Positions 451 to 49,339 of a stretch of DNA of 64,000 bases are shown here, piece by piece (the stretch's first letter is position 1; each line of letters opens with the position of its first letter). The position numbers were made by a program, and so were the translations under genes. Origin of the DNA: Gnetum montanum (lineage: Eukaryota > Plantae > Gnetophyta); NCBI GenBank assembly GCA_015680685.1, contig MNCI01001500.1, positions 1 through 64,000 on the forward strand, read 5' to 3'. A model generated the notes under the pieces. It was not told the origin of the DNA. It searched no databases and was given only the letters and a program-made list of their open reading frames with translations.

Positions 451-1428
451 AAAAGTAAGCATAAGTTTAGGAAAAGCATCTAAATTATGAAAAGCTTGTA
501 TAAATTTGAAAAAAAAAAACATCTAAACTATGCAAAAATTTAGAAAAATCATGATAAACTTAGAAAAAACTATGAAACCATAGTAAAAACTTATTTAAAA
601 TAGAAAAATCTTTTACTCTTTTTAAAAAACAAAAATTAAGCATATCAACCACTTCTATTTTGGGTAATGTACTACAATAATAATGAGTTTTGCCTTGATT
701 TAGAGTGATTCCACCTTTTTTGGAAAGCTAAAGCCAAAGCCTATGTAGCCATGACTAGAAAATAGAAAAAACCTTTGCCATTTTCTTATGAAAATTTCAC
801 AAATCTACATGAAATTACAAAAGCAACACAAACAACCTAACTACACAACATTAGGAAAACAACCATAACTTCCTCATTTCAAAGCCAAATTAAACGTGAC
901 AACCACCATTGAAAAACTTAAACAAAGGGATACAAAACCATAATCTTTAATTTTACAAATGTATAGCAATTTCACAAAGGAAAAATACACAACCTTCCTT
1001 GCCTTTTCATAGCAAAACTTCAAAAATCTCAAAGCCTAAATTTCAAATAGCCATTAAAATGGTAAAAATAGCCAAAACAATTAAATTCCATTTAAATTAA
1101 CATCAAAATAATGGGGTAGGATTTTGTTAAAATTTAATTTTAACAAGCTCGAAGGCCTAGATTTGAAAAAAAATAGCGATACCCCAAGATTTTGAGAAAA
1201 AAGCACAAAATAGCAAGCCTTGTTTTCAAAATCAAATTTGCAAAAGCTAAAGCAATAAAAAACTATGGATCTACATGAAAGAAGCCAAAATAGGATATGG
1301 GATTTCATCAAAATTTCATTTTAACCCCTCTACTATAGTAGATCTTGAAAAAATGTCCTAAACATTTAGAAATCAAAAAGCTAGAAAAATCACAAAAAAC
1401 AAAGGCAAAAATAGGTAGAATTTTCTAC

Positions 1429-1557
1429 CTTGGAGTAGAGACAAATGGTTCCTTAATAGAGATAGGCCTAGGAACCTCTGAAAACTCCCTAGAATGCTCA
1501 TCCATCCTTTGGATCATAGGATTCTTGCTCTTTCCTCCTCTCTTTTTTGTATGCCAT
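1429..1557 (-). pseudogene. First exon of the antisense accessory gene of element D
   Basis: ATG at 1557. With one frameshift it reads KRGGKSKNPMIQRMDEHSREFSEVPRP, then donor AG|GTAGAA at 1428. It resembles exon 1 of B (MSKRRMNTSKNPSFQEVEAITKGLS) in length, position and the SKNP motif. Confidence 0.5.
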
Positions 1558-1999
1558 TGCAAACTCAACATTAAGAAAGAGGAAAATTAGGAAAAGGTGG
1601 GAGTTCTACACTAGTGATAGGAGGGATGGGAGGCATCCATACTGAAGATTGGTTTTGGCTACCATAGGAATCTCTACCAAAGCTCTCCTCCAATGCATTG
1701 TTGCTGTAGAATGATAATTATTATCAAAAATTACAAAATCTAACATATAATACCCTTCTAAAACCTAAACAAAACCCTAGCAGCTTATTCAATGCATCAT
1801 AACTATAGGTGCATTGAAGAAAAAAGGGGAAATGTCTAGTTCACATTGGTTTTTAGGTGTGAAACAACTTCACTTTTCAAAGTTTTAATTTTTGGATTGT
1901 GGGTCCCATCATGTGCCTTCACTTTTGGCCAAAACTTACATCAACAATGAGATTTTTTGCCAAATTTGACACATCAAACATTATGGCAACCTTGATTTC

Positions 2000-4900
2000 A
2001 TACATCCATGCTAGAATGCCATGTCCAATGTGGAAGCATGCCCATTCTTCTACAAATTCATTAGCATTACAATATATTTCTATTTTTAGTAGCCTAAACT
2101 TACCGTTTTCAACCTTGGGTCTTCAAAATTCAGTAAAACATGAGCAAGGTTGAGAACCATGGAATTTCATGCTCAAGAAATAATGCCTAGTGTGGATGAA
2201 TGGGGGTAACACTCACAATTTCCTCCCAACACTCATCTAGCACATGTTTGATGCCAAAGTGGGCCCCACATGATTTAGAATCCCTCTAAGCATCTCTGGC
2301 AACCTCGAAAACTCACCAAACCTAGTCAAAACTAGTTTAAATCTAGGATTTGATGTGTTTCATGCTAGGGAACACTTCTCCCATGCTAAGCCTTTCACCC
2401 TCAAAGTGGATAGATGGGGGAATGCCAAAAATGACCTAAATTGGTGACCTAATGATCATTTCTTGATGCATGTTGACCCCTAGACCCTACTGGGACCCTC
2501 TAGAGCTTTCAAAAGCCCCAAAATGGGTCAAATATCATACAAAACTACTGTCCCCCTCTCATCCATGTTGGGGCCATCATGCCTATTGTGGAAGAAATAG
2601 GTGAGGTTCCATGAGACACTTAGAAGCCTCCAAACTATCAAATCTAAACACCCAACATTGACCATCGACATCGACAACCCTAGAGGTTGACATGTATGAT
2701 TGATCAGTTGTTGATTTGTCCTATACCTAACTCTTTTTACTAAGTGGGACCTCTTCCATAATGAGCATTCCACCTCAACATGGAAAAAGAAGGAAAGCCT
2801 GAAACCCTGTCAAAGCCTCCAAAATGATCAGAACTTGGCCTCAAGCACTAATGGCCAATGCTAGCAACCCTATGAGAATACATGCATGGCTAGATCAATA
2901 AAAAATGATCAAAAAAGCTTTTCACCAAAATTTTTCACACTAAGAATGGAAGCCCCAATGTGGAAAATTGGGGGAGCCCAAAAATGCCTTATAACCCTTG
3001 AAATAATCAAATTTTAATGTCATATGGCAATAGGTAACATTGGCAATCTTAGGGGCCTACATGCATGTTTGAAGATGACCAAAAGTGATCAAAAATATTT
3101 TTCCCTAATTTTCCATGCTAATCATGGAAGCCCCAACATGGAAAAATGGAAAAAATCAAAAAGATGCCTTATGACCCTTGAAACAATCAAATTTCAACAT
3201 TAGATGGTAGCAAATGACACCAACAACCTTAGGGCCCTACATGCATGCCTAAAAATGATCAAAAGTGATCAAAATTTTTTTCCTCCAATTTTTCATGATG
3301 AGCATGAAAGCCCTAGTGTGGAAAAGGAGGGGGAATCTAAAATATTCCTTATGAACCCTGAAATAACCAAATTTTGACATCAGATGTCAGCTGTCAATGC
3401 CAACAACCTTAGAAACCTACATGCATGCCTGAAAGTCACCATAGAGGATCAAAAAGATTTCCCCCAGATTTTCCATATTGATCATGGAAGCCTTAACATG
3501 GAAAATTTTGGTAACTCCAAACAATCCCTAGTGACCCTTGGAACAACCAAAATTTAACACTAGATGTTAGTAGTTGATGCTAGCAACCTTGTGAATGTGC
3601 ATTCATGACTAAAAGTGATCATAAAGCACCATAATGCATGGAAGCCCTAGCATGGAAAAAAGGGGCAAAGTCCAAAAACCACTTATCAACTTTCAAAAAA
3701 TAAAAATTTTAACATCAGGTAGTAACCATCTTCACTAGCAACCACAAGGACTTACATGCATGACTAAAAATGATGCAAAAGTATGAAAATCAATTTTCCC
3801 AAAATTTTTCACACTAAGTTCTCTATCCCCAACATGAAAGAAGAGGAGGAAGTGCAAAAAAACACTTTAAAAAACTGTTAAAATGACCAGTTTTGACTCC
3901 AAACCCTAGTCCTCAACCCTGATAGTCCCATAGGCTAACATGCATGATCGATTGAAGTAAAAACTATACTAGATCTAAGTTTTATGGTTTCTCCACACTA
4001 GGAATTCCCACCTCCATGATTCTTAGCATGTAAATTAAAGGAAAAATCCATTTGGAGTCTAGAACTATCCTAGAACAACATTAACCAAACTTGTATGTGC
4101 TCTAGGACCTTCTCAGCATCATTTGGAGCTTTCAAAATTTAAGAAACTAATGTTAGAAGATCAAAAATCCATTCCTCCATGTTTTCCATGTTGAGCTTTC
4201 CATCACTGGCATTGAAGAAAGGGGGGAAGCCAAAAAACCACTTAGTGGTACCCAAAATTGCTAAATTTTTGACATGGATCCATAGTAACCCTGAGAGGTA
4301 TCATGCATGGTTGATTGTGATTCAAATTGGTCTAAATATAATATTATTACTTCTTCCATGCTAGAATAACTTCCCCAACATGGAAAGAATGGGGGAGGTT
4401 ACTTTTCCACTTTTGGAGACAAGATGACACTCTTGGAAGCCAAAGATCTTTACTGAAGAAGCCTAGGACCTTATAGCCTTAATATTTTGCTTATTTAACC
4501 TTATTTCAACCTTTAAAACTCATTCCTCCCATTCTTCCATACTAGAGTAACTCCCCCATCATGGAAACATGGGGGAAGACCTTAAGTACCCTTAAACAAC
4601 CTTCAAATATGTCCAAAATTAGCTAAAAACTTGCAAAATCAAAATCTACAATCCTAGGGGCCTAGAAACCTTGTCAAAGTACTCCAAAATTACTTTGACT
4701 TCATAAAATAAGTATCCCCCTATTTTTCCATGTTGAGGATATTGTGCCTAACATAGAAAAAAAGGGGAAATCCATTTGAACCTCTATTAACCCAGAAAAT
4801 GACCTCAAATTGCCTTAGAATGAAGCACATGGATGCACAAGTTCCAGATCTAGAATCTAGACACATATTTGATCATGTTTGACCTCATTTTTTCTTTGAT

Positions 4901-5130
4901 TTTTTTCCATGCTAAATCACATCTTGTCCACACTATCCAGTGTGGAAACAAGAGGGAAAGGCTTCAAAACCTACTTTTTGGCCTTTACAGAACTTCGAGG
5001 AGCCAAATTTTGATGGATTTGACCCTATGCTACCTTGGGAAGGTCCTAGGACCTTAATCTTGGACCTTTGAGCACCCCAAAACCTATTTTCCTTAGTCTC
5101 TATACTAAGGGCCCTTGTTTCCACACTAAG
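2000..5130. repeat. ~180-bp-period array, each unit carrying an inverted pair TTCCAYRYTR-N~11-YARYRTGGAA
   Basis: Inverted pairs at ~2005, 2168, 2380, 2562, 2756, 2934, 3112, 3292, 3472, 3810, 4185, 4355, 4536, 4727 and 4906. Whole units align between 2880 and 3900 (atgcatg at 3061, 3241, 3421). Confidence 0.85.
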
Positions 5131-5644
5131 CTAGAAACAACCTAGAAACACTTGATTTTTAGGTCTAAACAACCTAGAAACAATCCTAATTGATGTCTAA
5201 ACTCATGTACTAACCCTACAGCCTCAAAACATGGTCCTCTGAGTCCTAACACTAGTAAAAACTAACCATATTTTATCTATATTAGTCAAACTTTATCATA
5301 TATAGCCTATGTTATTTGATTTTTGACTTATTACATTATGTTTTGGCTTGTTTTTAGACTTATGTTGCCTTGAGAACCTTGTTGACCTTCTATGACCTTT
5401 ATACAACATTATATGTTCTTTGTTTATCTTATTATAGCTCTATTTGCATTTTTTTGGCCTTTAAATGGTATCAAATAGTGGGTTTTGACCTTCTATAACC
5501 ACCATTTGACACCATATGACCATGGCTCGCTAAGGTCCTAAATTGGTATCATAGTCCAGCAAGACTTTAAACTAGCATCACAACCTATTAAGGGCTTAAA
5601 TTAGCAAAATTGTGACATTTTCTGATCATTTGTAGGCTAACTCT

Positions 5645-6670
5645 TTATACCTCACACTAGAAGTGGAAAGGAAAATATTCATATTCTTGTGGATTTGTTG
5701 ATCAAGTTAGCTCATTTCTTGGTTATGAAGACTTTAGCTAGCATAAAGGTTGTTGCATAGTTATTCACCTATGAGATCATATGATTGCATGACATTCCTA
5801 CCAAGATTATCTCAGATTGTGATGCTAAATTCACTTCTTAGTTTTGGCAAGCATTCAAGGATAGCCTAGGTAGTAGGATAAATATGAGTTTATCTTAGCA
5901 TCAATATATTGATGGTTAGGTTAAGAGAGTTAACCAATTATTGGAGGAAATGCTTTCATCTTGTACCTTATAGTTTTTAAATAGTTGGAATAGTATATTA
6001 CCATTGGCAAAGTTTACTTATAACAACAACTACCAGGCTAGTCTAAAGGTAGCATCATATGAATTTCTATATGGGAGATCTTGCAAAACTTCCTTATGCT
6101 AAGATGTAATCAAGGATAGATAATGTATCACTTTAGATGTTGTGTTGAGAATGATAGAGTAGATTAGGGATATTCATAAGTAGTTAAAAGTAACTTATGA
6201 TTATTAGGTGAGCTACAAAAACTATAGGAGAAGGCCTCTTGATTTTGAAATTAGTGATAAGATGGTTTTTTGTGTCTCTCCACTAAAAGGCTTGATGCAT
6301 TTTAGTTAATAAGGTAAATTTGTATCTTGTTATATTATTCCATTCAATGTTTCTCAATGTATAGGAGTGGTTTCATATCATGGTGGTTTGCCTCCACAAC
6401 ATTTGTGCATGCAAGATGTATTTCATGTCTACGTGCTATGGAAGTACATCCTTGATGTTAATCATTTTGTTAACTAGTTTGAGATATAGCTTCAAGTTAA
6501 TGCCTCATATGTGGAGTAGTCCATTAGGATGGTGGACCAAATGGAGTCCCACTTACATAGTAGGATTATTCCCATGATGAAGATTTTGTAGAGCCATCAT
6601 GGTTCCTAGGAGTCTACTTAAAAGCTTGAATCCAATTTATGTTCTTCACATCTTGGGATCTTTCCAAGAG
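5645..6670 (+). pseudogene. Chromovirus (Tekay/Del-like) integrase core and chromodomain, many stops
   Basis: Reads PHTRSGKENIHILVDLLIKLAHF, LHDIPTKIISDCDAKFTS*FW, LPLAKFTYNNNYQASLKVASYEFLYGRSCKTSLC, VSPLKG, DVFHVYVL and KIL*SHHGS*EST*KLE. Confidence 0.9.
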
Positions 6671-6693
6671 GGAGATCCTTAAGGGGGAAAGGA

Positions 6694-9274
6694 TGTAAAA
6701 ACCCATATTTTTAGCATCTTTGGTATGCATAATATTTGCAAATTTTGTGATATTTATATGCATATGTGCTATATGCTTGTTTGGCTTGGTATATTCTTAT
6801 GATTTTTTCTAGAGGCTTTATGATGATGTTGGGCTTTAAGATACTTAGAGGCATGGATGTTCTTATGTATCTTTTAATATTTAATTATATGTATATTTTT
6901 ATTCCATATAGTAAATGGACACTAACCTATTGTTGAGTATGCCATGATCTCATGAGGATTGGTTGGAAACATGACATCACATGTGAATTATAGTTTGTTC
7001 AATTTTTTTCATGAGTGCATGTTATATCTCTAATTGTTATTTGGTTTGATGATTTTTTTATGTATACATGTATGTTTATGTATGTATTTGTTTAGATTAG
7101 TTTTATTTTATTTTTATGAGATATGTTAAAATATATATTTTTGGTATGATGTATGTTATGGTATATTTCAGTTTTAGTTATTTTGGCATGTGTGGAAGTT
7201 ACATGAGTGGGAGAGGAAGTTACATTTGAGATTGATAAGATTTTAAGTATTATATTGGTTTGGGTGATTGGAGTTCTTTCATTCAGTGATTTTTCTTGGT
7301 CAATTTTGATTAAAACTTCAACCAATCATTCTTTTCACATACTTTGATAATTCAAAAGAGGTGTTGTAGGAGATTAAAGCTATGGAGATGCTAGTGGATT
7401 ATGGATTAGTTATGCAAATTTCTTACATCTTTATGGTTTACTTTCATTTCTTGTAGTTTCTATAGTTAAAATTTGAAGATGAGTTACCTTGGCTTCTTTC
7501 CATTTTATGTTTATAGGTTTTTGTATACATCCATGGGATGGATATTGTTTATTTTTTAGTATGAATGATATTGTTTTAGGGTTGATGGGTATAGCTTTGT
7601 ATGCTTGAAATAATATTTTTGTAGATTCTATGTGGTGAAATTATGATTATGGATTTTTCTATTTCATCATTTTTGGGCATGGATTCTATGAGATCTATTC
7701 AAAAAAAAATTTATGAGATCATTTTTGGGCATGGGTTTTCTATTTCATCATTTCTGAGCATGGGTTTTGCTAATTCATTTATGCGATTAATTATAATTTC
7801 ATAAAAGTACTACTATGATTTTTCTTATGCATATGTGTTCTAGATCTTTGAGAGAGAGAGATGTAGTATGGGTTTTCCATGATGGCTAGTGTGGAATTTT
7901 AGGGATTTTTTTCACTCATTCTAACATTTAGATCCATTTCCCTTGCTATGATCTTATCATGTTTATTGTGATGGTTCCTATTTTGCATATCAAATTGGCT
8001 TAAATTCCTCTTTCTCTTCTATATATGTGATTTTGATTATTGCTCTATTCCTATTGAGATTTCCAACCTTTTTTTTAATAATTGAATTACTAGTATAGTC
8101 TTGTTATTGCTTTTATTTATGTCAATTTTTGTTCTTAAGTTGTTGAGCTCTTACCCATGGTTTTATTGTCCATTCTCCTTATATTGGTATTTTTCCTTGT
8201 TGATCAAGGTGTTTCCTTGCCTAGAGGAGATGTCTGAACATAAGACAAGACATCTTACCTAAGTTGCCTCCAATTTTTTCATAGAAATCTTCTAGTTATC
8301 ATAGAAATAATGTTTCCTTCTAAGAAATCTCATCCAAGACATCTCTTGATTTTCTAGATGGCTCTCCTACAAGCCAAAATCTACCAAAAAATTGAATATT
8401 ATGAAACTTGGTTTCTTTTTTTGGCCTAAAACTTGAAATTCTTAGTCTTTGAGATTTTTGAAAACCTATCAAATCTTTCTTATATATTGGATTAAATTTT
8501 TCCTTCTTGCATCTTTAATTATTGGTCACTTTTCCTTTGGTTTGGATGATTATGATTAGGTTAAATCTTGGTTAATTATGATCTTGTTTCTTTTTATTAT
8601 CTTGAATTTTCACAATGAGCATTTACTAATATTTCTAGGATTAAGTACAAGCTTTATATCTTGTCAATAATCATAATCTTTTCTTGGGTTTGGAGGTAAA
8701 TATTCTATCTCATTTTTTAGTTACCTCATGGTGTGATAACCCATATACAATTCTCACTTGTTGGTAACTCTAGTTTTCCCATTATTGTGACACTATCAAT
8801 TTTTTAGTGATTATGATAATGTTTTCCCTTGAATTTGTTGGCATCTTGGAATGTGGTTAAATTATGTGAGATCCCTTGATTGTGGGATTTGGTTTGCGAT
8901 GATGAATTTCCATGTGATTGGATTACTTTGTTAGTATCATGTGATTTCTTAGATTGGTATCCTTGTGAGGATTCCTTATACTATTAGATATCTTAATGAA
9001 ATGAACTCTTTTACTCTATTGCTATATCCTCCACTGTTAGTTTGGATTCCATGGTTGTTTTTTGTTGATTATTTAGATGTTGGAGCTAGCACTGAGTTGT
9101 GTGACCGATTGGAGATGGGCTTCCTACAGATGGTTTTGTGATTAACGTCTGTAGGGATATCTCAGTATGACTTTCATGGGAGGCATCATGCTATGTGAAA
9201 GGATGATTCCATGGTTTATTTTTCATTTTATGTTGTGCCTATAGAATGGTAGAGGTGATGTCTTGGGTTATGTC
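6694..9274 (+). mobile_element. Long LTR of the Tekay-like chromovirus, interrupted at 9275 by element A
   Basis: PPT aagggggaaagga (6681-6693) is followed directly by TGTAAAAACCC and a long non-coding T-rich tract. Confidence 0.75.
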
Positions 9275-10286
9275 TATAATGACTAAAAAATTTGATGGTA
9301 GAGATTTGAAGATCTCAATGTAGAATAGTTTTACCTCAAAATCCATGGGTCTCAAAATGATCTAAGGCACCTTAGGAGGTCTAGTCAATTATCTAAGGAC
9401 TTATGAGTTCTATTACAAAATGAAATAAATGAAAATAAGCAATAATGGATAGAAAAATGAGCAAGTGAAAGATCCAACACTAGATCTATAAGAACCATGA
9501 TATAAAGTTAAAAATAACATGTCTAAATGTTTTATTTAATGCTTCAAATTACAATTTTGAGAGAATATAGAGTGTGAAATTCTTAATATTTCATATATCT
9601 CTACAAAAATGGTGCTAAAAATCTAGCTTGCGGATGGGTGATATGTGTGCTACAATCCTCCCAAATATGTCTAGCTTGCTTAATCTGCTTCCTGGTGCAA
9701 CTACAATACATTTTCTTTATTATCTTACTAGAAAAAGATATGCTTTTCATGCTTAAAAAGGTCCAAAAAGGTCTTAAAATTGATGCCATTTTTGACTTAA
9801 ATAGACTACAATTTTTTGTTTCTCCATTATTTAGGTTATAATAAGTGTCCCAAATAGTTACACAACATTTTGAGTATTTTTATGTTTTAAAATTGCAACA
9901 TTTTTATCACTAGCATTTTTGACTAATTTCACTTGGAATGCAAGCATTTTTTACACTTTCCATGCCCCAAAATTGTAGTGTTTTTGTCACCAACCTTTTT
10001 GACTATTGTTAGTTTAATTGTAGCATTTTTTGTAGTGTATTCAATAATTTCAAACTCATATACATTACTCTAGTATAATTCACAATGTATTTGACATTTT
10101 ATGCCATGAATTACATCTTTAAAAGTGAAAATTTTCTAGGACATTAACAAAATATGATCACAAAGTGAATTTTCTAAAGGAAAATGAAGGCATTCATGTT
10201 TTCTCTTAAATCCAATCAAAATTACATGATAAAATATTGCTACAAGGCTTCTTTTTTGCATCATGAATTTTCTTTGAGGTGTTTCA
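9275..10286 (-). repeat. 3' LTR of element A
   Basis: The first ~150 bp align with the LTR starts at 19164 and 35355. It ends GGTGTTTCA followed by TTGGCCCC, as at 38154. Confidence 0.8.
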
Positions 10287-18770: not shown

Positions 18771-18879
18771 ATATGAGTGAAGTTCTAGTTTGAGCCCATA
18801 TAAATCATGTTTTTAGGTAATATTATTAACAAAAAAGGCATAAACAATGTAGAAAAGATGAATCAAGTATATGTGTCAT

Positions 18880-22491: not shown

Positions 22492-25400
22492 TTAGATGTA
22501 ATAAGTCTTGATATAGGAATGGTTGACCAGGTTGGCCAATTTATTTTCATTTTTATCTACTACTTTGAAGACTTCATTGCCATAGGCATTGATGACCAAG
22601 AAAGGCCCTTCCTAGTTGGCTGAGAACTTTTTCACACTTATAAATAGCCTTAAGGACATAATTTCCTTTCTTGATCTTTTTTTTATTTAGGTCATGACGA
22701 TGTTGTTTCTTCTACCTCTTTTTGTACCATTTGATTTAAGCAAGCATCTATATCCACTACTCTTACATTGAGTCCAAGTTAATGGTACATAGCTCCTTGT
22801 TTTTCTCATTGTTGATGAAGTGTGATAGGGATGCCCTAAGTGATGAAACCTACAATTAAAGAGAAAAATATGTTGATATCCATAAATCAGGCTATATGGG
22901 ATTACATGAGTCGTAATTCGATAGGTAGTTCTATCAGCCTAAAGTATGTGGACAAGCTACTCATGCCACTTGCATATACTATTATTTAGCATTTTTAAGC
23001 AATTTTATAATATCCTTGTTGCTAGCTTCAACTTGAACATTGGCTTGAGGGTAGTATGGTGATGAGAAGGAATGCTTAATGCCTAAGTCCTAATAAAAGT
23101 CTTGCATTTCTTGGCCACTAAATTTTGATCTATTATCTATAACTATGCTCAAAAATATGCCAAAATGGACTACTATGTTGTCCAATATGAACCTATAGAA
23201 TTTTTAAGACATTGTTTCCCTTAGGGAAAAAAATTTAACCTACTTTGTAAAGTATTCAATTTCAATGATAATGAAGCTATGCCCTATGAATGACTTACAC
23301 ATTGTAGGTTCAATAATGTTAAGTTCCCACTATTGAAATGGCCACGTTTTCTAAGTAGTGTGTAACTCAATTGGTGGTATGTGTATCATGTTCCTATGCC
23401 ATTTATAGGTGTCACAAGTCTGAACCTTCTACAAGTAGTCACTTTCCATATAAGGATAGTAATAGCCTAGTCATCTAATTTTAGCGGCCATGGCTCTATG
23501 TCCTATATGCCTTCCACATACACCTTCATGAACTTGCTTAAGGACTATGTGGGCTTCATTGTTTCCCAAGCAAACCAATAATATGCCATCATAGGACCAT
23601 CAACATAATGTGTTTTTGGGTATAATGACATAATGCTTTGATCTTTTACATAAAATGTCCTTTTGAGAAGTAGTCAAGCCTTGTGGAGATTCACCATGCA
23701 TTAGCTAAAACTTCATATCTTTATACCACTCCTTTTGAGAAGTGGTGTTAACAAAAGCTATAGAGTCACCTTCAGTGTTTTGCGTGATGGGAATAGCATA
23801 TTTCATGGTTAAGGAAGATAACTTGCTAAACACATCGAGCATCACATGTAGGCTAAGGTCATAATGGCATCAACTAATGTTTTATTAGTTTGGGGTATAT
23901 ATTGGATACCAATATCCATAAATTATTGCATTAGTTTCCTACATAGGTCACAACAGGGTTGCAAATGTTTGGTTTTATAGGTGTAAACCTCTATTACTTG
24001 GTTAATCATAAGTTATAAATCATCCTTTATCATGAAGAATTTGATTCCTTGATCACAAGCTACCATCATTCCCCTAATCAATCCTTCATACTCCTCCATG
24101 TTATTGGTACATGGGAATTTAAAAAAGTAGGTAAAGGATTGGATTTCACCAAAAGGTGAGGTTATGATGGTAGTAGCACTAGTCCCATGGGTAGTTGAAG
24201 CTCTATCAAAGTGCATAATTGCATCATATTCCTAAAGTACTTTGCTAACAATGTTGACATGCTCATCAATAAATTCAATGTCAATGGCTACATGGTCTTC
24301 TACTAGAAAAATGATAAGTTATGTGGCTATAGCTTGACCTTTCGTTGAGGCTTGCGAGATGTAATGGAGATCAAACTTGATTCTTATGGCTTTCCAATAG
24401 GCTACATGGCTACTTTCATGGATCTTTGTCATCATGGATTTAAGCACATTGTACTTGTGAATGACAATGACTTGGCTTCTAAAGAGGTAGTGTCTCTCCT
24501 CTTCTTTAATGAGAAGACTAGCACTAGACAATACTGCTCCACTTCAGTGTATTGGGTTTCGTAGGTAATTAATGCATGACTTAAGTAGTATATGGGAAAC
24601 TTGCCTCCATCATCTCATTTTTGACAAACTAGAAAGATGATGGACATATCAAAGATACTAAGGTAGATGTAAAATGATTAATCCTTTTATGGTAGATAGA
24701 TAGTGGGTAGTTGTTCCAACTCCTCCTTAAGGCTTTCAAAGGCTTCTTGGCATCAATCCGTCCACTCATAGTAGACTCCTTTCTTAAGTAAGTGTTACAT
24801 GGGTTGTAATTTATTTGTAGGCCTAACAATGAACCTATGGATAAATTGTAATCTACCTTACATTTCCAAAATTTATTTAAGGTTATTTTGTGCTACCAAG
24901 TTTCATATAGCCTTAACATTATTAGGATCAACATGTATTCCTGCTTTAGATATTACAAATCCAAGCATCTTATCAGTTTTAACACCAAAGATACATTTCT
25001 TAGGGTTAAGCCTGGGTTAATATTTAAGGCATAATTTAAGCACAAGGTCAAGGTCATGTGCATGGTCATTGACCATTTTGAACTTAATGGCTATATCATC
25101 CATGTAGTCATTAAGCAATCCTAACATGTAATTACTAAAGGTATACTTCATGGCTCATTGATAAGTTGTGCTTACATTATTTAGACAAAAGGAAATCATG
25201 ATGTAACAAAAGGTTCTTCAAGGTGTCATGAAGGTCATACAAACTTGATGCTCCTAGTTAATCCTAACCTGGCTATATTCCAAGAATCCATCCATGAAGG
25301 ATAACAAGGCATGTCTAGCAATAGTATCGATAAGTTGGTCAATACTGGGAAAAGGGAAATCATCTTTGATACTTGTCTTATTCAAGTCCTGAAAATCAAT

Positions 25401-25979
25401 GTAGATACATATACTCCCATTTTTCTTATGGACTACCACTATGTTGGATACCCATTCCATGTAATCAATAGCTCAAATAAAACTAGCTTGATATAGTTTT
25501 GTGATTTCATTGCAAACTACCAAGGCTAAATCTAATCTAATCTTCCAATATTTTTGCTTAACTAGCTTGATACTAGGATCAAGTATAATGTTATGTTATG
25601 CTAGGAATGGATTAAGACCCAACATATCTTTATATGAATAAGAAAAGACCTTAATGTTGTCTTGGAGGAACTTGGTGATGTCTTGAGCTTGTTGAGGTTC
25701 TAGTGACGAACATAGTTTCAATGTTTTCTCCTCATTACTATGTGTCATAACAGGAAACTCAACTAGAGAGTCTTTGGTAATGTTTTCAATCTCAAGGTCA
25801 ATGGTTTTAACTAGCTTTACTAGCCACTCAAGAGGTTTCTCTATTGATGCTATGTGGTTGACAAAACTCTCAAGCTCAAAATCTAAATGATTAAGATTAA
25901 CAAATCATTGAACATCACCATAAGGTCTAGTTTGGCTCAAAGTTAAATTTATTTTCCTCTAGGTGTCCATACTCAAATC
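22492..25979 (-). pseudogene. pol: pol of element B: RT - RNase H - archaeal-type RNase H - integrase
   Basis: EWVSNIVVVHKKNG...IDFQDLNK...DDFPFPSIDQLID, YMDD (~25097-25108), aRH MHFDRAS...CTNNMEEYEGLIRG, integrase HEGVCGRH, WPFQ*W, SPYYPQAN, N*EGPF, ending YIKTYYI*. Many stops. Confidence 0.95.
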
Positions 25980-26949
25980 CTACATATCAACCATAAGCAC
26001 ATTAAGTAGCACCAAAATAATGTAAAATACTCTAGCAGTTATTCATGAATATGCCAAAACATGTTACAACAATGGTCAAACAAGATTCAAACAAGGTCAA
26101 TAATGGTTATAAGAGGTAAGTTAAAACAAATAGGGTGAAACAAAATCTAAATAATGTAAAATAAGTTGAACAAAAACTAAATGAGGTCAAGTATCAAACT
26201 TCATCTACTAAAGTCAAGCAAGGTCAACACATGGTCCATAGGGACCATAAAAGAAGAGGCAAGGTATGTAAGATGTACTAAAGGCCAAAAAGCATGAAAT
26301 AAGGACAATTAGATACCAAATGATAATCAAATGAGTCCGAATGATGCTCTAATGAGGCCAAACAATGATCTAGTGATGGTCAAGTACCATTAAATGATGT
26401 CAAACAAGGCTAAAACATGGTCAACAAAAATCATTAGGGATAGGATAAGGTAGATGGGGTAAACCCAAGGCCAACTAACATAAAATTAAGCCAAATTATT
26501 GACAAATGAGGCCAAATAAAGCCCAAATGATTATTTAATCCCATTATATGATGTTTTGGGGGTCAAACAAGGTCACGATGATGTTCAATGAGGTTAAGTG
26601 ATGTTAAATGAAGTTCACGAAGGTCAAAAAATGCCAAATGATAGGAACATTTGGGTGGAAGAAGGTCCAAACAATAAGAAAATGATAAAAATGAAGCCAA
26701 ATAACATCAAATGATAAGGAAATGAAGGTCATTAATGCATAACAAGGTCAAATCAAGTCAAAAGATAATGAAATAAGACCAAACCAATCAAGGTGAAAAA
26801 TATGGGGTAAAACATGATCAATACTAGTCAATTAGTATTACATTTGTCAAGTTTTAGCCCTTAAAAATTCATGGTGTAAGGCTATAGAGTTGGTGAAAAA
26901 TTTTGGGTACTTGGGAAGGCCATTTTGAGGTTGAATTTGGTTAGAAATT

Positions 26950-28930
26950 AGATCCCTTTTGGCAACTACATTGGAGCCACCCTGGGACTACACTAGCTAG
27001 CATGGCTCTAGCATGGCCTAGCATGGTTCCTAAAAAAATATGAGTACCTAGGTTTTTTATGGTTAGTTTTGGGGTTCTAATGGTCCAAATTGCTAGTTTA
27101 ATGGATTAGGAGTGAATATTTTCTAGCTTTTGTGTTAATTTGATCCTCTAGAAGGCACAAATGCTACCAAGAATTTCCAACTACACTAGGACAATGCTTG
27201 CTAGCATGGCCCCAACATAGCTCCATGGGAAAATGGGTTTCTAGCATTTAAATATTGGAATTTATGTCTTATCATCTTCCTAAGATGACACAAGAGCATT
27301 AGGGTTGCAAATCGATCATCTAAATGCCAAAATAGATTTCTAGATGTGAAATTTCAAACCATCCCCTTGCACTATGCTAGCTAGTGTAGTTGAGGATTCC
27401 CTTAGTGTGGATGGATAAAACTTGATGTATTTATGGTCAAAACATGATCAAACTATAGCTGGCTTTAGGGCTTCAATGTTCTAGGCTTTCCTAATTAGGT
27501 TTTAGACCAATTGAAGTACTATGATGCTAGCAAAAATATTCCAGAACCTCAACTACACTAAGGCCATGTTAGCTAGCATGTCTCTAGTCTTCTGCAATAT
27601 AGTTGCATCTAAATTTTCATTTTTGATAAGTTTTGATGCTAAATTAATCAAGTTCTCAAGTTCCTAGGGTCACTAATGCCCATGGCTAGGGTTTAGACAC
27701 AAAATTGTTAATTTTGATGATTATTCAAGTGTAGATATGGTCATCCCCCTAGACTACACTAGCCAATGTAGTCTCAGAATGGATGGGAGGAATATGATGT
27801 ATTTTAGCTATTTTCAACTCAGTTTCTAGGGTTTGGTGGTCTCTGATGGCTCCAGCAGAGATTTGGGGTTGGGATGGTACATCTAGGAGTCAATTTGACA
27901 TGTTTATGATCTATTTTTAAAGTTTTTCATGAGAACTACATTGCCTAGTGTAGTTAGGGGCTTTCCCAATGTAGTTTTGAGGTTGTAAGGTGTTTTGACT
28001 ATTTTTTATTTCATTGTTTTGTAGTTTAGGATTTTTAGAAACCCTAAAAAGGTGTGAAGGTTGGGATGTGTGACTTTCAAGATTACTTTTAGAATTTGGT
28101 TCTCAAACCTCAGCCAACTACATTAGGACTATGTTGGCCAACATAGTTGGAATGTCCACCATTATAGTTCCAATGTTAAAGTATATTTTGACCTACTTTT
28201 TCTTGGTTATTTAACATTTCAGGATGATCAAAGACTCTAGGCTGTATAAAGGTCATGATATGATACTTTGAAGGTTATTTAAGACTTTTAATAATCATAA
28301 GCCTACCAAATATGCTAGGTCTATGCTAGCCAACGTGGTTAAGATACCCCCCAATATGGTTCAACCAACATTTATGGTTTTTAGCACTTTTTGTTTGGTT
28401 TTAGAAAGTTCTAGAGCTACCAAAGGCTCTTAATAGGGTTTGAGATTTGGCATGGTCATTCCAAGGTTGATTGAAGGCTTCATTGGTGGTGTAAAGTACC
28501 ATCCCTCTTGGAACCATATTGGCTAGTGTAGTTGAGCTCTTGACCAATGTAGTTACCCAAAATAACTAATTTTGTCATGGGTTTCAACCTTCCTAGAAGT
28601 CTAGTGACTTCCAATGTCAACACTGGATTTCTAATTCTGGTATGAAGGGTTTTGACTTTAACATGTTCTGGATTGATGACTAGGAAGTAATATTTTGCAA
28701 TGATCAAGGCTTGGAATCCATTCCATGGAATTTTAGAGACTTAATCCCAACGTAGTTCTTGTATGAAGGTTTTAATCCTAGTGTATTAGGGTTTTTACTA
28801 GTTTATTTGGAAGGCATCTAGTGGGGCCCATTCATGTTTAAATTGTTAAAATAAATTAATTTTTCCACTAACCCATCATAGTTCCCATCTTCTAATTTTG
28901 AACATGGAGTTACGTTAGAGTAGTTTGGTG
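26950..28930. repeat. ~190-bp-period array of palindrome RACTAYRYTRGCYARYRTAGTY
   Basis: For example agactacactagccaatgtagtct (27751-27774). Further copies near 26985, 27195, 27370, 27562, 27933, 28125, 28320 and 28512. Confidence 0.85.
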
Positions 28931-29177: not shown

Positions 29178-32100
29178 ATGTCTAAGAGGAGGATGAATAC
29201 AAGCAAGAATCCATCTTTTCAAGAGGTAGAAGCTATTACCAAAGGGCTTTCAAATCTGTCATGGCCTCTACTAAAAGAAGGATCCTCTAAAATGCCTACC
29301 AAGTACCCCCTCCTAGCGATTTCTTTACAATTTTTGGCCTAGAAATTAGGCATTTTATGTCATATAGGCTTGTTGTTTGAATAAATTTTTTTTTGTAAAA
29401 TTCCAACCCTGTATTTAGTTTATGGTTATGTTTTCATAGTGTTTTTTTTTTTTTTTTTTTTTTTTTTTTCCNTCCCTTAGGGCTTACCCATGCTAAGTTT
29501 TAAATTTTTTATCCAAGCCATTTTATGCATTTTCACCATTTTCTTCTTTAAAAAGTAGCATTAATTTTCAATTTTTTAATAAGAAATTGGAATGGAATTT
29601 TTTGTTTCTAGATCAATAGGATTGTTTTCTACTATTTACTAGTTGAACTAGTTATGAAATCACTGAATTCTAGTCTATAGTTAATTTTTTATGAATTTTT
29701 CCATGCGTTAGGGCATAGTGGAATTTTGGGTTTTTATTACTTTTACCTTGTTGAAACTAATAATGTTGGCACTAGAAAAATGTTTTTCTATCAACGTCCT
29801 AGCTTCCTAGGGATTCTTGGAACCATGTGGGAGGGTATGACACTTGTTTTGGAATTTTTGAAAAAACAATTTTGTATTTTTCTAGTGATCTAGTACAATC
29901 ATTTTTCTACAATTTGGGATTTTTGTAAGAGATTGAAGTGGTTTCGAGTTGTATGAATTTTCTTAAAGCCTCAAACTAGCATTAATGCCAAATTTTATAT
30001 ATGTGCAATGTTTATACTTCGAAAAAATGTTTTAGTAGAAAATTATCATTTTTTGGTTGGTGTTAACTACCATATACAATTGTAGTTTTAACTGTTGGAA
30101 CTACAAACCCCCTAAGTTTTATTAGCAATATTGGTCTATTTTTGGTATTTGTTAATGAATTATTTAGGATTCTACTAGTTATTTACATGTTATGTATTGA
30201 CTTCCAATATTTTTTTAGAATTTTTCAAAATTTTCAACTAGTCTCCCTAGAGTTTTTACTATAGCTAATTTCATTATAAATTAGGATTTCTACTTCAAAC
30301 TTTTTCAAATTCAATTTGAAATTTCATAGCTGTTGTTATGGGTTGTATTCTTGGTACAAGCTAATTCTCATGGTTTCAATTTTTTACTCAAATTTTTTGC
30401 AATTTTTATTTATGTTTTCACCATAAGATTGGCGTTAGTTTTAATGGGCAACTTGGTCTCTTTGTCTAATTTTTGGTTAAATTCTATTTTGGTTCTAAGT
30501 GTTGAACACTATGAATTTTGTTGTTTGGTTTAATGTGAAAATTTTGACATTATGTCTATAATTTTTTGGTTATTTAATGGTTATTAAAGTTTAGTTATGG
30601 TCATGCGAGGTCTTAATGGCCATTACTAGGTTATGCATGGCCTTCCCAAAATCCATCCTAGTAGTGATCAAGTTGGTCAGGCTCCTATGTTGCATCCACA
30701 CACCAAGGTCCAACATCCCACTTAGTAATATGATGTTGGATCAGGGCTCCCTTTAGTTTAGGCTTGGGGCCAAGGAGTTCCTAGCCTTCCTATTACAGAA
30801 CTTCAATGTGATGGTGTGGTCACACTTGGCTTTTGAAATAGCAGTTGCAATTATGCAAAGCTTACTATCCCACTCTGCTCACTTGATCATAAAGTTCTTA
30901 ATTAACAATCCTAATACTCATGTTGAGGGCAAATAATTTGATATCATATACACTAGGGGCACACATCAATTTTCCAAAGTCTATCCTTGAATTCATCTAG
31001 GGCAATGCCAACAACATGTTACTAGTTGGTCACCATGTCAACACATTGTTCCAGAACCTTCCTAGTACCATCTACTGTGTGGAAGGGTAAGTGTAACTTT
31101 AAGTTTTTTGTTTACTTTTTTGTTTCATTCGGCCACCTAGGTTTAATAATTTTTTTTGTGTTGGCATGCTTGCAGGTACTAGGTGAATGACCAAGGGTTG
31201 ATTAAGAGTAACTAGCTCTTGCCCTTAGCTCAAATAGCCTTGGAGGTCTTTTCCAAAAGCTTAGTAGTGAGGCTTGAAATGATGGAGTAGCTCAAGGGTG
31301 ACTTTGGCAAGTATTCCTCACACTATTCCTAGGCCTACCATAGGTGCTTGACCAATGAGATGGCTCATAGCTTGTGGGGTATCCTTGACTTAGGTGTATA
31401 GACATATATACCCCTTAGGGTTCCCATGTTGGCTTCTTCAAGCAAGTGAAGTAAGTATTTTTATTTCTATTTTGTTTTCTATTTCATCCAATTTTAAATT
31501 TTTCTAATCATGTAGTTATGTGGTTATTTACATATTAACTACTTAATTGTTTTATCGATGTGGTTATAAGTTTTTTTTTAATTTGTTATACTTGTTATAT
31601 TTTTGTCATTCATGGGGATACCTATGCCAAATCTAACGAGTTATTTTCATTGTGTTGTTAGGGCTATGCCATTATCTATCATAGCTATGATCACTTCAGG
31701 ATGTGCTTAGGAGACACTTTTCCTCATTTTTAATGAGGTGGATGTAGTGCAGCATTGGTTGGCTAGTTAAGCATACAAGGAAATTCAAGAAAGGATCACC
31801 ATTGTAGGTTTTATAGACTTGTAGATGGCTCCCATGTCAATTATTCCTACACCTAAGATGGTGAATGCCATTGACTCCTTTAACAAATAAGTGAAGAAAT
31901 TTTTCACTTGGGTTCATGGTGTGCCTATCACGTTGGGCCATCAATAAATATACCTTCAATGATCTCTTTGGCATCCCTTTTTAGGGAATGAAGGTTGCCA
32001 CCAACCTAGGGAAAGAGGTGGACAACTAGGAGGAGGTGGAAGAATGATTAAACACTTATCTTAGCCACTCACCAAGGATGCAAAATTTAACTAGGCTACT

Positions 32101-34300
32101 CATTTGGTTTCCAGGCTATTAGGGAAGATCCTGAAACTCTAGAAAAACCTTGGCACCAAATGCCACATACACTTTGCGTTTTTTGCAACGTATCTAAGGT
32201 GGTTTGTGAAGTTCTTAGTGGTGTAGAAGGTTGGATAATGGATAAGTCAAGTTCCATCCCAACTCTCTCAGTCTTGGGTAAAACATGTTTATCCAACCAT
32301 GCAAGCTCATAACCTACTAGAGGATGTTGGGAAATCACTACCTATTACCACTAATCATTTTAGTGGTATGTGTTGTCCTTCCCCTGACATCAAGGGGATG
32401 GAATCCTAAGTTGCATATGGAAATGTTTAAAAGTTCAAGGATTTATGTGCTAAAGCTAATGGGGTAGCTAGAATAAAACTAAAGAGTCCTATGGTTGAAA
32501 AGACAGCACTAGTTGTTAGGCATCCTAGGAAGAGAAGGCTCATTGTTAGACTTGGCTAGGTGCACCATGTGATTATAGGTATGCTCTACTTATGCTATTT
32601 TGTTTAAGTTATTTGGAAATTATGTTTTATGTTATATGTCCATGTTGTTTTTTTATTCTAGGAAAAATATGCTAAGAGGTTCTATGCTTTGTCTTTATTG
32701 TTCTTGTAGATAAACAACAAGAACTAGCGGCCCAAGTAGCAGCAACAAAGGCTAAATAAGGGTATCTAGAGGAGGAGGCATTACAATTACATGAGGATGA
32801 GTGGCTATCTAATTCCATATTGGATGACCTCAATGCTATATTTTATGATTCACAATTAGGTGAACCTCTCGTTATTATCCTAGATGAGCTTCCATGTACT
32901 TGTAAATTTTGTTGTATATGTTACATTTTGTAGTTTTATGTTTGAGCTTGATTAAATCATTATGCTATGATCATTCTTTTAGTAGCTTCTAAAACTCAAC
33001 CTAGTACTTTTGAGTCTATGTTTTTCATGAAACCATGGGTAGATGTTCTAGTCAAAATGGAGTTCATGTACAGGATGACCAAAGACATGATCAATCGATT
33101 ACAACAGATTGCTCCTAATGTTGGTAAGAACTTTAGCTTATTTTGCTTTTAATTGTTTATATTATTTATGTGTTTTTGTTTCATATGTATTATATAGATA
33201 TATGGTCTTAGTGGTTTGAAATTTTTCTTAGTTATTTTTATTATTTTTTATTTACATTGTTTTGTGTCTTTATGTTGGTTGTGTTACTTGCAGTGTCAAA
33301 GGTTGGATGGGATTCCAACCATGTCATTGAGATCAATGAAATTTCCAGTGGAACACTTGAAGTGAAAAATGTTCCACAAATTTTATATGAAAGTGCCACT
33401 AAATGTGCACTCTCATGTGCTAGAACCTTGTGGGAATGTCAATGTTCCAATGAGTTCCTATAGAACAAGTTGTAGCATTGGAGAGCAAAAAAAAAAAAGA
33501 AATAGCCTAAGAAGATTAGAGATCTCAAGGATTGTAAGGAGTTTGTGAAAGCCCAAGTGACTAATAGGGACTCCTTAAAAATAAAGATTAAATGAATGTG
33601 GTATTGGAATGCCATCCATGACAAAGTTGCACTTTCTAGAAGTAAGGGAAGTAGAAGCTTTAGATGGACTTGTTGGCTCGTAAGGCTAGGGAGTGGAGAG
33701 GCTATTTTACTTCGATCCTTGAATGGGGCCAAGCACAAAAGGACCACAAAAAAATATAACACTAAATGGGAGAGCTAGCTGAAGTGACTATAAGAGGAGT
33801 GGATCAAGAGGTGTAAGCTAGAGTTGTTCATGAAGGGAATTAATGCTAGAGATGCCTTCAAGTTGTTTGAAAGCTATCAGGTGATAGTTGATTCCCCAAC
33901 TCCTTAGGTCCCTACCACTTCCAGAGAGGTGACTACTACTACATTTTCATAGGATCCATCCACATGGACCAATGTTAATGAGAGCAACATCTTAACCAGT
34001 GTTAATCTTGGAAAAGTGCATTGGGCCCATAGAACTGAAGACAAAATTCTCCATTGTCTAGAGGTTGGTCTTCAGAACTTCCCTACAAAGGATACTGCTC
34101 TAGAATATTCCTAAGTTTGTTTTTTTTTTCTAATTAATTTCTTATATTTTATCTTGGTTCAATTTTTGGTTTGATTATGTTGGTTACTGATTAGATGTTT
34201 GTTGTTATGATTGGTATAGATACCAAGTGATAGTAGTAGTCTCGATGTTGATCACATTGGAGATACTCATATTGCCCCTTTAGTTGCATCTTAGTTCCAT
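29178..34300 (+). pseudogene. Antisense multi-exon accessory gene inside element B; tentative plant mobile domain (PMD)-like region plus C-terminal coiled coil
   Basis: TATAAA at ~28961 and ATG at 29178. Exon-like blocks separated by T-rich introns, mostly GT..AG: 29178-29302, ~30640-31086, 31176-31450, 31662-32578, 32710-32895, ~32986-33123, 33294-~34110 and 34220-~34293. Exon 4 reads IQERITIVGF...VNAIDSFNK*VKKF...INKYTFNDLFGIPF. The domain call is by eye only. Confidence 0.7.
29442..29469. repeat. Poly-T tract (28 nt) in intron 1 of the antisense gene
   Basis: Directly visible, with an ambiguous base at 29473. Confidence 0.95.
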
Positions 34301-36269: not shown

Positions 36270-36535
36270 CAAGAGCCACATTGAGGTGTATGGGTAATAC
36301 TAGGATATAACACCCACGTTGGGGGGTATAACACCCACGTAGGAGCTATAGGAGCCAAGCTATACCCACACTAGAGCAATGCTAGATCCATGCTATAGTA
36401 ATGTTGGATCCATACTAGAGAAATGTTAGGGGTGCAATAGCCATGTTGGACCCATGCTAGAGTAATGCTAGGGGGTAGTAGTTATGCTAGGGGGATAATA
36501 GTTATACCTCCCTAATGCTAGGCATGGGTGATGTT
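36270..36535. repeat. Short tandem repeats in the LTR of C
   Basis: tataacacccacgt(t/a)gg twice and several atgctagag/atgctagggg units. Confidence 0.7.
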
Positions 36536-36836: not shown

Positions 36837-38154
36837 TGTATTAACCTAAATCGTCGGTGTAAGGCTAGAAGGGAAACAGACACTGAGAGATCATCGGGTA
36901 TGCACAGCTAACCCTACCTTCACTTGAGGGCAAGCTATAAAAGGGAATGAAGGCAGAGTGTCTTGGATGGTCTGCACAAAAATCAACCAAGGACTTCCCT
37001 GAGCGTAAGCTACAACTAGCGTTGGGGTTATTGTAAACAAGATAAACAAGATGTAAACAGAATGAAAACAGTGACACAAAATGTAAACAGAGCGTACTGA
37101 ATTATAAATAAAGTGTAAAAAAAGCTATATTGTAAAAAAAATGTAAATATAACTGAACAATGTAAATGGAAGGCAATGAACTATATTGTATTGTTTAATA
37201 AAAAAGGTATGCACCGGTCAAAGTGTAGCTGCACGTGTGGATGGCAGTTCAAGCACTAAGCCTCGGGATGATGTCTAAAGTGATGTGATGAATGTGAGAA
37301 ATACTTGGATACTAATAGTTTGGTGTGCCAAGCACCAAAGGATTATAGGTTCTGTACTTTCTCAGAATTGCCAATGTCTCCAATTGCCCCCCAATTTTTT
37401 TTGCCTCCTAGTTTATGTGAATTGATAGGGTATTTATAGGGTTGGGCTAGGCTCAGGCACGAAATCTAAGAATGAAGTCAATGGCTATGAGATGAGAGGA
37501 AAGTAGATCTAGGGACATGTGTCCCATGGATAGTTGGCACGAGTTGGATGTGTGTTGGCAAGCTACATTCTTGACCAGTTACATTGCATTTTACAATTTA
37601 TGGGTTATTCAAGCCCATGAAAGTACATTTAATTTAGACCATGAGGGCTTGACATGCCCTCAAATGGGGATTTATAATGAAATGTACAACAAGAAAAATT
37701 TGACTGCTCGGCATGACTTGTAGTGTGACCTGTAGTATGACCTCCAAAACTTGCAATTTTCAGTTGAAATCTGGAATTTCTGAAGGCTGGGACCCATAGT
37801 TATCAATAGTGGACCCTGAGGATGACTTGCACCCTTGAAATCAAGTCATTTGGCTTAGTTTTGGGACTCTAAAAGTTGGTGACGCTGATCCTTACGCTGT
37901 GCAGCATCTAAAAAAGTGACCCCAGTGTACTTAGCCAAAACCAAATATTTTGAACCTGAAAATTTTGGTTCTAGATGCTGGAAGTTGGTGCAATCGCTTG
38001 TGAGCCCCAAGGGAACCTTGCTTGTTGAATCATGGGCCGTTAGGGGCTGTTTCGGAGGCCTCCAAGTTTGGTCACACTATACTCATGTTGGGCAGCAGCA
38101 TGACTTAGCTTGATTCTTGTCTAAAAGTGCTAGGCCAAAATTAGTGGTGTTTCA
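36837..38154 (-). repeat. 3' LTR of Y (1318 bp)
   Basis: Direct repeat of 43890-45349. About 12% mismatch in the first 200 bp counted by eye, mostly transitions. Confidence 0.95.
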
Positions 38155-43884: not shown

Positions 43885-43889
43885 AAAAC

Positions 43890-47145: not shown

Positions 47146-49339
47146 NTATGTTTAAAAAATGGTTGAAGGATTTTTTATTATCTTTTAGTCAACCCCACTA
47201 AGCCATGCTAGCCAATGTGGCCCTAGCATAGGTGGAGGGGGTGGGATGACTGCAAAAAAATATTTTTTTATAGCAATGGTAGGACAACAAAATGTTGGTA
47301 GCAGAGGTGCATGAGGATCATAGGGCAGTGGAATAGCTACGACAACACAATGATGGCGAGGTAGGAGATAGAAGCATATGGTGGCTGTGGTGTGCAATAA
47401 GGAATAGGAATGGTACAACTGCATGAAAGTAGTAAGGTTTACTTTCATGGCCTATGTTGGTGCTACAACATGAAAATACAGGTCAAAGGGCACATGATGT
47501 AGCATGACAAGAAAAACACATGCAGTAGTAGAGTAGTGGAATGGTGGAGCAAAGTGGATGGACAAGTGAACATAGTGGTGCTAAGTTTCAATGGTGGTAG
47601 CAGTTGAGTGGTGTTGTGTGGGCATGCGGTGCAACATAGATAAAGTTGAGGGTGAGAGGATGGATAGTGCAAGAGCTATTAGGGCAAGGCAGGCGAGGCC
47701 ATTGGCAAGGAATCCAGTGCAACAAGAGCATGATAATAGAGTTTTTGTAATGGGTTGACTATAGCACCAGTAGTCTTACATGACCTTGTTGTGGGGCTGG
47801 ACAATCTCCTTCCAAGGTCTCATGCTATCGAATGGGTTTTGACTATAGAAGGATAATGAAGGAGGAAGCAATGATGGCCATATGGGTTCCTTGTAGCAGC
47901 CTTCTATTGTAGCCTATTATTATGGCTAGCACTACTAGCCAATGCTACAATCAGCCATAGTGGCTATTGGCCATACCCTAAGGGTTAGGGCCTAAGCCTT
48001 TTTTTAAATTTTTATTTTCTTCATGTATATATATATAGAATAATGATGCTATATCATGATTTAATACTATAAAATCACTAATTGCAATTACAGAAATGAG
48101 ATCCACAAATGCTTACTTTGATAGGTTATTTGTTCCATAAAACTAGATCCCTAGTACTGAAGCAAGTAATTCTATGCATGTCTATTCTTGTGCATGTGTT
48201 TTTCCTTGAAATGAGGGTATGTTCTCCAAATTGATAGTCAAACCACTTTGCAATAAAACTAACTACCAACTAACTGCAAAACATATGGAATGAAAATTTT
48301 TCTAAATGAATTTCTTGCTCATAAGTAAGTTTTAGCTTACAATTCTTGTCCATTATAGGGCTTGCACAATCCTCTAATGGACCTACATGGCCTAGGCATG
48401 CTTGGTTAGCTTGCAAAAGGAAAAAAATTGGTTGCATTTTATGCATAACAAAAGAAACATAGATCATGGTATGGAAGGGACCATAGAGGAAGGCCTTTCT
48501 ATTGTTGTGTTAAATTAGTTACACTTACATTACAATGCCATGTCTCACCTTGTTGTATCATTTAATGTAAATGAAATTATAAATGAGTTTAATGATGTTT
48601 ATTCTCCATCATGAGCTACTTTCAAAATAACAAAAACTAGCTTGAAATCTTCTACAATCATGTCATTGCTAATCTTTAAAACTATGCATCAACAAGATGG
48701 TAGTGAAGCATCTCCTTAATTATCATTTCAATAGCTATGATGTCTTTGGATAATAATTATAGGGGCTATTCACCCTTAATACATTGGTCAATTTATCCAA
48801 ACTTACCATTGCTTTTTCCACATTGTTGAATGCTAAATAACATCAACATGCATCTTGGCTAACTTATAATTTGGTTGCCTTGTCAAAATTGTTAACTTTT
48901 AATACTTTTTCAGTTTTTAGGTTGTTTCATAATTTAATGGTTATATTTGTGGCTATCCCTAGCACTAATGGTTGCACATTTTTGATGTTCGTAGGCCCTA
49001 AGTTATGACAATGATTAGTTATGATGTAGATGATGACCTTTCTTCTCCCCCACCCTATGGCTTAACTTTGACTACTATGGGACCAATTACATCTTACTAT
49101 GCTTTTCTTTCTTGTTGTTATAGTTTTTTTCATTTGAATATAGAGGTCATAATGATCATGTATTGTTCATGCAGTTGTATGTTGCATAGTGAAACCATGG
49201 CCATAGATATATGGACATTTGGGTATTCTTTGATTGTTCTCCCACAGTGTGATCACAACTACTATTATAGCTTTATAAACCTAAATGGTAGATGTAAAAA
49301 GGCTATAAAATGAAATTGGTAAGTAAAAACATGTTGTAA

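Follow-up and report, generated by a model that had tools for sequence, protein, structure and literature searches.

An array of decayed inverted YACGCTG sites beside a likely antisense promoter in a probable Ogre-like retrotransposon of Gnetum montanum

A 64,000-nt stretch of Gnetum montanum DNA (contig MNCI01001500.1, here termed the window) contains an array of old, diverged repeats that is best explained as an enhancer-like cluster of binding sites for an internal antisense promoter, a reading to which we assign a probability of roughly 0.55 from the sequence. The element that carries the array is likely an Ogre-like Ty3 retrotransposon, a setting absent from the original prediction. Symmetric conservation without covariation, the occurrence of the core at two likely promoters and a lattice of spacings together make a platform bound by protein at multiple sites the best fit.

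The array and a younger part of it are as follows.

2006..5129, no strand: the array, made up of 17 diverged units of ~180 bp; every unit contains a YACGCTG / CAGCGTR dyad, flanked symmetrically by T-tracts and C-tracts.
2856..3860, no strand: recently amplified subfamily with units that carry CATGCATG: four of 180 bp, 66–74% alike, together with the one at 3829 and another (3647) that has suffered a deletion.

The original prediction of about 17 units at a ~180-bp period is borne out by 17 right half-sites (2025, 2187, 2401, 2583, 2775, 2955, 3133, 3313, 3493, 3647, 3829, 4023, 4206, 4375, 4556, 4748 and 4937). These are spaced 154–214 bp apart, mostly ~180–190 bp, and two left half-sites are found in addition at 5100/5121. 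Only the four units at 2955–3493 form a clean 180-bp tandem, and the remaining units average near 53–55% identity. Mean unit identity is ~55% against a shuffle floor of 50%, and by their sequence the units are old. A simple satellite was rejected because the units are only near 55% alike. Seven of the 14 copies of CATGCATG in the window are inside the array; in the units of 2856..3860 we take this motif to be RY-like.

A comparison of the core with shuffled sequence had been named beforehand as the refuting test, and the core proves to be commoner than chance: there are 18 strict, decay-aware half-sites, compared with 2.65 ± 1.45 in 200 dinucleotide shuffles (maximum 8). Inverted pairs with an 8–14 bp spacer number eight, versus 0.14 in shuffles. 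A pattern scan of the whole window yields 16 matches against 2.42 ± 1.56, a count reached by none of 100 shuffles; nine of the matches fall in the 2006–5129 array and five in array B, the corresponding array of a sister element (element B). In the unit alignment the core occupies 21 of 155 columns but contains all five invariant and 10 of the 17 highly conserved columns (p 2.5e-6), a conservation that is somewhat inflated, as the alignment windows are anchored on the right half-site.

Base by base, the 38 half-sites show A3 in every case and T7 in 37. Positions 4–5 are TG in 22, CA in 11, TA in four, CT in one and CG in none, and positions 6–8 are CTA in 17, TTG in 11 and other triplets in 10. 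This TG/CA alternation is the signature of a former, methylated YACGCTG core. The pattern confirms the proposed back-mutation to B's YACGCTGG except for the last G: the ninth base is divided between G (19) and A (17), and the firm core is therefore YACGCTG. The window has the composition of plant-type repeat DNA (CpG o/e 0.15, CAG/CTG 0.39–0.46, and a TG/CA excess to match), and the CG- and CHG-containing motif has been kept across many units despite the low CpG value.

The predicted inverted symmetry is real, with 68.9% of cells paired at the dyad versus 42–47% when it is slid, and as an extended dyad it is best preserved at one place.

4715..4770, no strand: best-preserved extended dyad, with ~22-bp arms and an 11-bp spacer.

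As an alternative to binding sites on duplex DNA, the units could form hairpins, of RNA or of single-stranded DNA, whose arms would measure 20 bp and whose loops 10–11 nt; in the unspliced genomic RNA they could act in packaging, control of long-spacer splicing or small-RNA production. The array would lie in + strand genomic RNA, and the dyad symmetry extends ~20 bp, which is more than most protein sites need. The stem at 4715–4770, singled out in the original prediction, folds at z −3.3 (+ strand) and −5.7 (− strand), and four of 12 folds (six units picked by eye, both strands) have z about −3 or lower. However, dyad covariation is 0.223 compared with 0.232 ± 0.024 in shuffles, 320 of 500 of which are as high; this was computed on 14 of the 17 units, leaving out the deleted unit and two units of the 0/21 type described below. 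Complementarity of an arm to its own partner versus other arms is not significant either (p 0.07–0.28). Decay after insertion lowers the power of such tests. The consensus fold has five pairs only and −1.6 kcal/mol, an Rfam search returned two chance-level matches with none near threshold, and the core is kept in abutting pairs (spacer 0) and in one-orientation LTR runs that have no such hairpin. Thus symmetric sequence is conserved and structure is not. Stems that fold with covariation not above shuffles favour double-stranded binding sites, and the hairpin series, unsupported by both covariation tests, appears unlikely.

The geometry of the sites links the array to others in the window.

3993..4031, no strand: B-type unit, an outer left site followed by an abutting left/right pair (spacers 21 and 0), the inner site degenerate.
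4907..4945, no strand: B-type unit, an outer left site followed by an abutting left/right pair (spacers 21 and 0).
26950..28780, + strand: sister array B, same core, left–right spacers 0, 11, 21/22 and 32, same-orientation steps 11 and 21.
36315..36490, + strand: the same half-site, repeated in tandem every 11 bp in a single orientation, within the LTR of a related element.
37721..38102, no strand: 5′ part (U3) of the LTR of a nested gag-pro element, with seven core-compatible sites and one pair at spacer 21.
47204..47230, + strand: B-type unit of a third element, just past an N gap.

A geometry different from that of B had been proposed, and this holds in part. The dyad spacer is 11 bp in 10 of 16 cases and 10 bp in four. 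But the other two dyads (4014/4023 and 4928/4937) have spacer 0 with an outer site at 21, the abutting arrangement of B plus one more site at a distance of 21 bp, which appears as a 10-base insertion in the unit alignment; and array B itself has the 11-bp pairing six times. The left–right spacers of B are 0 (eight), 11 (six), 21 (seven), 22 (three) and 32 (four), and its same-orientation steps are 11 (seven) and 21 (seven). A single lattice of 0, 10/11, 21/22 and 32 bp underlies the two arrays, the difference being in the positions filled, which weakens the suggestion that spacing diverged between subfamilies.

By chance, 21% of distances should fall on a ~10.6-bp lattice. The observed numbers are 12 of 19 for the array, 46 of 59 for array B and 13 of 21 for the run in the LTR. 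A period of 10.75–11 bp fits best, and the distances share ancestry and are not independent. Helical phasing and an 11-bp tandem origin would explain the lattice equally well. Perhaps the array is a neutral by-product: an 11-bp tandem monomer would have folded back to a palindrome, which template slippage then multiplied in steps of ~180 bp, about the size of a nucleosome, as with other Tat-clade arrays. The first unit of B, where 11-bp steps separate three left sites and likewise three right ones, is consistent with such an origin, as are the period peak and the recent 180-bp burst in the array; family-specific arrays of no known function are also common in Retand, according to excerpts of PMC11963269. 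A neutral process does not readily account for a conserved core in units that are otherwise close to the shuffle floor. Outside the core, the unit bodies of the two arrays show no detectable likeness (52.5% vs 51.0 ± 3.3). The core also recurs in LTRs, and we consider this origin doubtful.

A protein platform on double-stranded DNA remains our preferred reading, the dimeric binder first put forward being one putative form of it. Conservation of the core in diverging units, symmetry without covariation and the core in LTRs speak for a binding protein, which may or may not be a dimer; the single-orientation 11-bp runs (36315–36490) work without dyads. A NAC/VOZ dimer site was provisionally set aside, the half-site order of its consensus being opposite to that of the array dyad.

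The nested element has seven of the 10 core-compatible sites of its LTR clustered in the 5′ part. The CG state of the core is proven there by the LTR pair, at 37893, 37923 and 38073; another site pair is out of phase (spacer 3). The element itself (36832–45350) is a non-autonomous gag-pro element without RT-INT, with LTRs 89–91% alike, a 5-bp flanking duplication with one difference and a 71-bp tandem expansion in one LTR. Just after its primer-binding site, at 43748–43800, are 10–11-bp periodic half-site-like repeats, only two of which passed the scan.

Other repeat clusters are found in the window. At 12164–12946 there is a third diverged array with ~146/293-bp steps, in the spacer position of another deleted Ogre-like element; its core is GTGG(G/A)NCCCAC in place of YACGCTG, presumably TCP-like. 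GATATC-centred palindrome clusters that keep CG are present at 19430–19520, 52290–52370, 55890–55960 and 60680–60750, some of them just upstream of TATA-like boxes.

The surroundings of the array bear on the element to which it belongs.

1429..1557, − strand: homolog of the first coding exon (the ‘D exon’) of an antisense extra gene, with a frameshift near the start and a GT donor end (1428–1427).
1558..2000, − strand: likely promoter/leader, from array to exon; promoter–exon 1 score 161 vs 103 ± 11 against B.
5170..5607, − strand: distal flank, homolog of the stretch of B spacer that has array B on one side and the RT-proximal acceptor-like site on the other; score 205.5 vs 87.6 ± 9.4.
5641..6693, + strand: C-terminal part of an unrelated decayed Ty3 integrase, with SH3_Tf2-1 (E 9e-7), a chromodomain-like end and a PPT; LTR from 6694.

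That the array is upstream of the D exon homolog on the − strand, as originally predicted, is confirmed by exon and flank homology to B. The exon homolog encodes an SKNP-containing peptide that resembles B 29178–29302, and nhmmer matches 1409–1541 with 29322–29185 (local score 60.5 vs 29.9 ± 5.6). Promoter and exon 1 on the − strand match 28751–29700 of B on the + strand, and the first intron matches weakly. The distance from the array end to the ATG of the exon is ~450 bp in both elements. A GTGGGNCCC site, which we take to be TCP-like, is present in the promoter/leader at 1899 and has a counterpart at 28821 in B. On the distal side, 5605–5199 matches 26529–26904, and 5605–5485 matches 46808–46936. 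The array copy (− strand) is collinear with element B (+ strand) through flank, promoter, exon and intron. Positions 1–340, in the presumed first intron of the array copy's gene, show two ~150-bp direct repeats that are 73% alike.

The array copy is truncated ~550 bp before the acceptor and joined at about 5610–5650 to the integrase element, which is presumably Tekay-like. The junction is spanned by a contig of organism C. Summed read depth, which is not equal to copy number, is 477–19,374 up to 5715 and 27–99 beyond, with ~11,000 contigs per run on 1300–6800; depth of this order up to 5715 indicates that the array element represents an abundant family. The possibility that the array is part of the adjacent chromovirus-like element was rejected on homology and on the depth break at ~5610–5700. 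The stretch 1300–5700 is present in sequencing runs of five coded organisms, in shares of 0.06–0.46. PolyA RNA on the array copy comprises no reads in run X14 and 13 partial reads in run X11.

Classification depends largely on element B, in which pol and the extra gene can be followed.

22859..25990, − strand: pol of element B, an acceptor-like site at ~25985, then RT, RH, aRH-like and INT.
29178..34110, + strand: decayed multi-exon gene of B, antisense to pol, with exon-like/intron-like composition and GT/AG ends.

The additional aRH domain by which the Tat clade is recognized is found in sister element B, the array copy's own pol being missing; it is an RVT_3 match of E 0.0013, below the curated cut-off, between RT/RH and INT. 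The position between RH and INT is that required for Ogre, and excerpts of PMC6317226 and PMC4408406 describe the order RT-RH-aRH-INT for Ogre and Retand. The closest RT matches are 33–41% identical and carry no lineage label, and membership of Ogre is tentative.

The cassette of B is upstream of RT; after INT come a 3′ region of ~1.5 kb and then the LTR. An acceptor-like motif is common to three elements (~25985, ~11720 and ~46485), and a ~950 bp spacer separates array B from the one at ~25985. No protease was found between this site and the RT of B. The nested relative (36832–45350) has gag, a protease-like ORF called by eye, without a Pfam match, and then repeats that match the spacer of other elements (E 0.003). 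Array and gene, we infer, occupy a PROT-RT spacer that has become greatly enlarged, at the position of the Ogre intron; this location rests on homology to other copies, as B's own gag-pro is not in place in the window.

Two further features concern these spacers. At 11313–11778 and 46019–46540 there is seemingly one common deletion of RT-INT just after the pre-RT linker, which suggests an amplified non-autonomous subfamily. A TTTTAGGCC-type short repeat block (5518–5605, 15141–15196, 34743–34870, 39805–39860 and 46808–46864) is characteristic of the spacer in five elements, where it sits at either end, and may flank the cassette as direct repeats.

The extra gene of B alternates between exon segments of GC 0.35–0.47 and intron segments of GC 0.24–0.31 and T 0.41–0.50. 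Pfam gave no match at E ≤ 1 for five exon pieces and two further frames of this decayed sequence, and neither PMD nor TRP28 (Transposase_28) was found with the decayed query. Word-indexed protein searches of 31663–32574 and 33293–34105 found no homolog. A phmmer search of 31663–32574 against 1.84 billion representatives had 0 matches; the query probably changes frame midway, which makes this a weaker test. No DNA-binding domain emerged from Pfam or from the three protein searches. A likeness to Transposase_32, seen by eye, gained no support when phmmer was run against the Transposase_32-like ORFs of the window itself. Such ORFs are carried by two related elements in inverted orientation, about 65% alike (52661–58097 and 58592–63941), each followed by a coiled-coil-like part. 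A decayed copia-like RT/RNase H fragment is also discernible by eye at 49300–50150 on the + strand.

In Spm, the TnpA gene has a short first exon and many introns. The short first exon, many introns and both-orientation motif array found here resemble that layout (for its motif clusters, see excerpts of bioRxiv 10.64898/2026.08.24.746577), which raises the question of whether the array represents subterminal repeats of a captured DNA transposon, CACTA/TnpA- or MULE-like, that brought its multi-exon gene and site array into the retrotransposon. But the cassette borders have no CACTA-type ends; neither CACTA TIRs nor arrays at both ends are found at the cassette, no second array being seen at the 3′ end of the gene, and there is no transposase match. 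Furthermore, the flanks run on into retrotransposon spacer DNA common to three elements, and the core is also in LTRs. Such a capture seems improbable.

Comparison with known retrotransposons places the element near Ogre and Retand. In Ogre, GAG-PROT is set apart from RT-RH-INT by non-coding DNA, an intron that is spliced in part (excerpts of PMC6317226 and PMC4408406), with a spacer averaging 274 bp (PMC6317226, in part). The likeness lies in the aRH between RH and INT (in B) and in long non-coding regions with tandem arrays. By contrast, the spacer of B is apparently at least 9 kb and includes an array as well as a multi-exon gene in antisense orientation, and the extra gene has no PMD match; PMD is present in the extra ORF of 57% of Ogre and is not universal.

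In Retand, antisense extra ORFs and tandem arrays of 8–100 bp units are usual between pol and the 3′ LTR, and the excerpted text states that their function is unknown (PMC11963269). Gene23 of Grande has its own antisense promoter (PMC7264820, in part), and a DNA-binding regulatory role is proposed for the antisense extra ORFs of Retand, Grande and RIRE2 (excerpts of PMC11963269 and PMC7264820). These elements share with ours an antisense extra gene with neighbouring tandem arrays and, in Grande and likely here, its own promoter. They differ in location between pol and the 3′ LTR, in the 8–100 bp units and in an ORF that is mostly TRP28, whereas here the cassette is upstream of RT, the units are ~180 bp with a conserved dyad, and the gene has introns and no TRP28 match. 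[quoted passage not shown]

Among DNA transposons, VANC and TnpA bind motif clusters that arose by tandem amplification (excerpts of PMC5735166 and bioRxiv 10.64898/2026.08.24.746577; for accessory TE proteins, see also PMC13547354, in part). The array has in common with VANDAL VANC and Spm TnpA a short motif that tandem repetition has multiplied within non-coding TE DNA and that differs among subfamilies, next to a multi-exon accessory gene. However, binding and demethylation have been demonstrated for those DNA transposons, while this retrotransposon is known from sequence alone and no homology to those proteins was found.

In the mechanism that we propose, the now decayed tandem cluster of inverted YACGCTG sites would provide an enhancer-like platform on double-stranded DNA, and the platform would drive an internal promoter and thereby the element's antisense extra gene. 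One protein might occupy several sites along one face of the helix, and the same factor might also act on the LTR promoter. Introns of the extra gene would be kept because the gene is antisense to genomic RNA. The putative binder is somewhat more probably a host transcription factor than the extra gene's own product. A more speculative model, to which we give little weight, is that the Ogre pro-RT intron serves as a multi-kilobase cargo bay, whose spliced antisense gene encodes a protein that would bind YACGCTG arrays in helical phase, both at the promoter of that gene and at LTRs of autonomous and non-autonomous relatives; this would be a retrotransposon counterpart of VANC/TnpA activation or anti-silencing.

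Tandem arrays and antisense extra genes of retrotransposons are already known; what is unusual is that the cassette likely lies in a pro-RT position, that its gene has introns and that a phased motif is shared. The arrangement was not found in literature on the motif, on Ogre introns in conifers, on Tat antisense ORFs and arrays, or on Ogre with PMD and anti-silencing, a survey of main texts without supplements or subscription papers that does not establish absence from print.

A defined, conserved and phased motif common to array and LTR gives binding and reporter assays something concrete to aim at. Were the binder a host factor, the array would be a less unusual instance of a transposon accumulating sites of its host. 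Were it encoded by the element itself, this would explain how a very abundant family stayed active in a heavily methylated genome.
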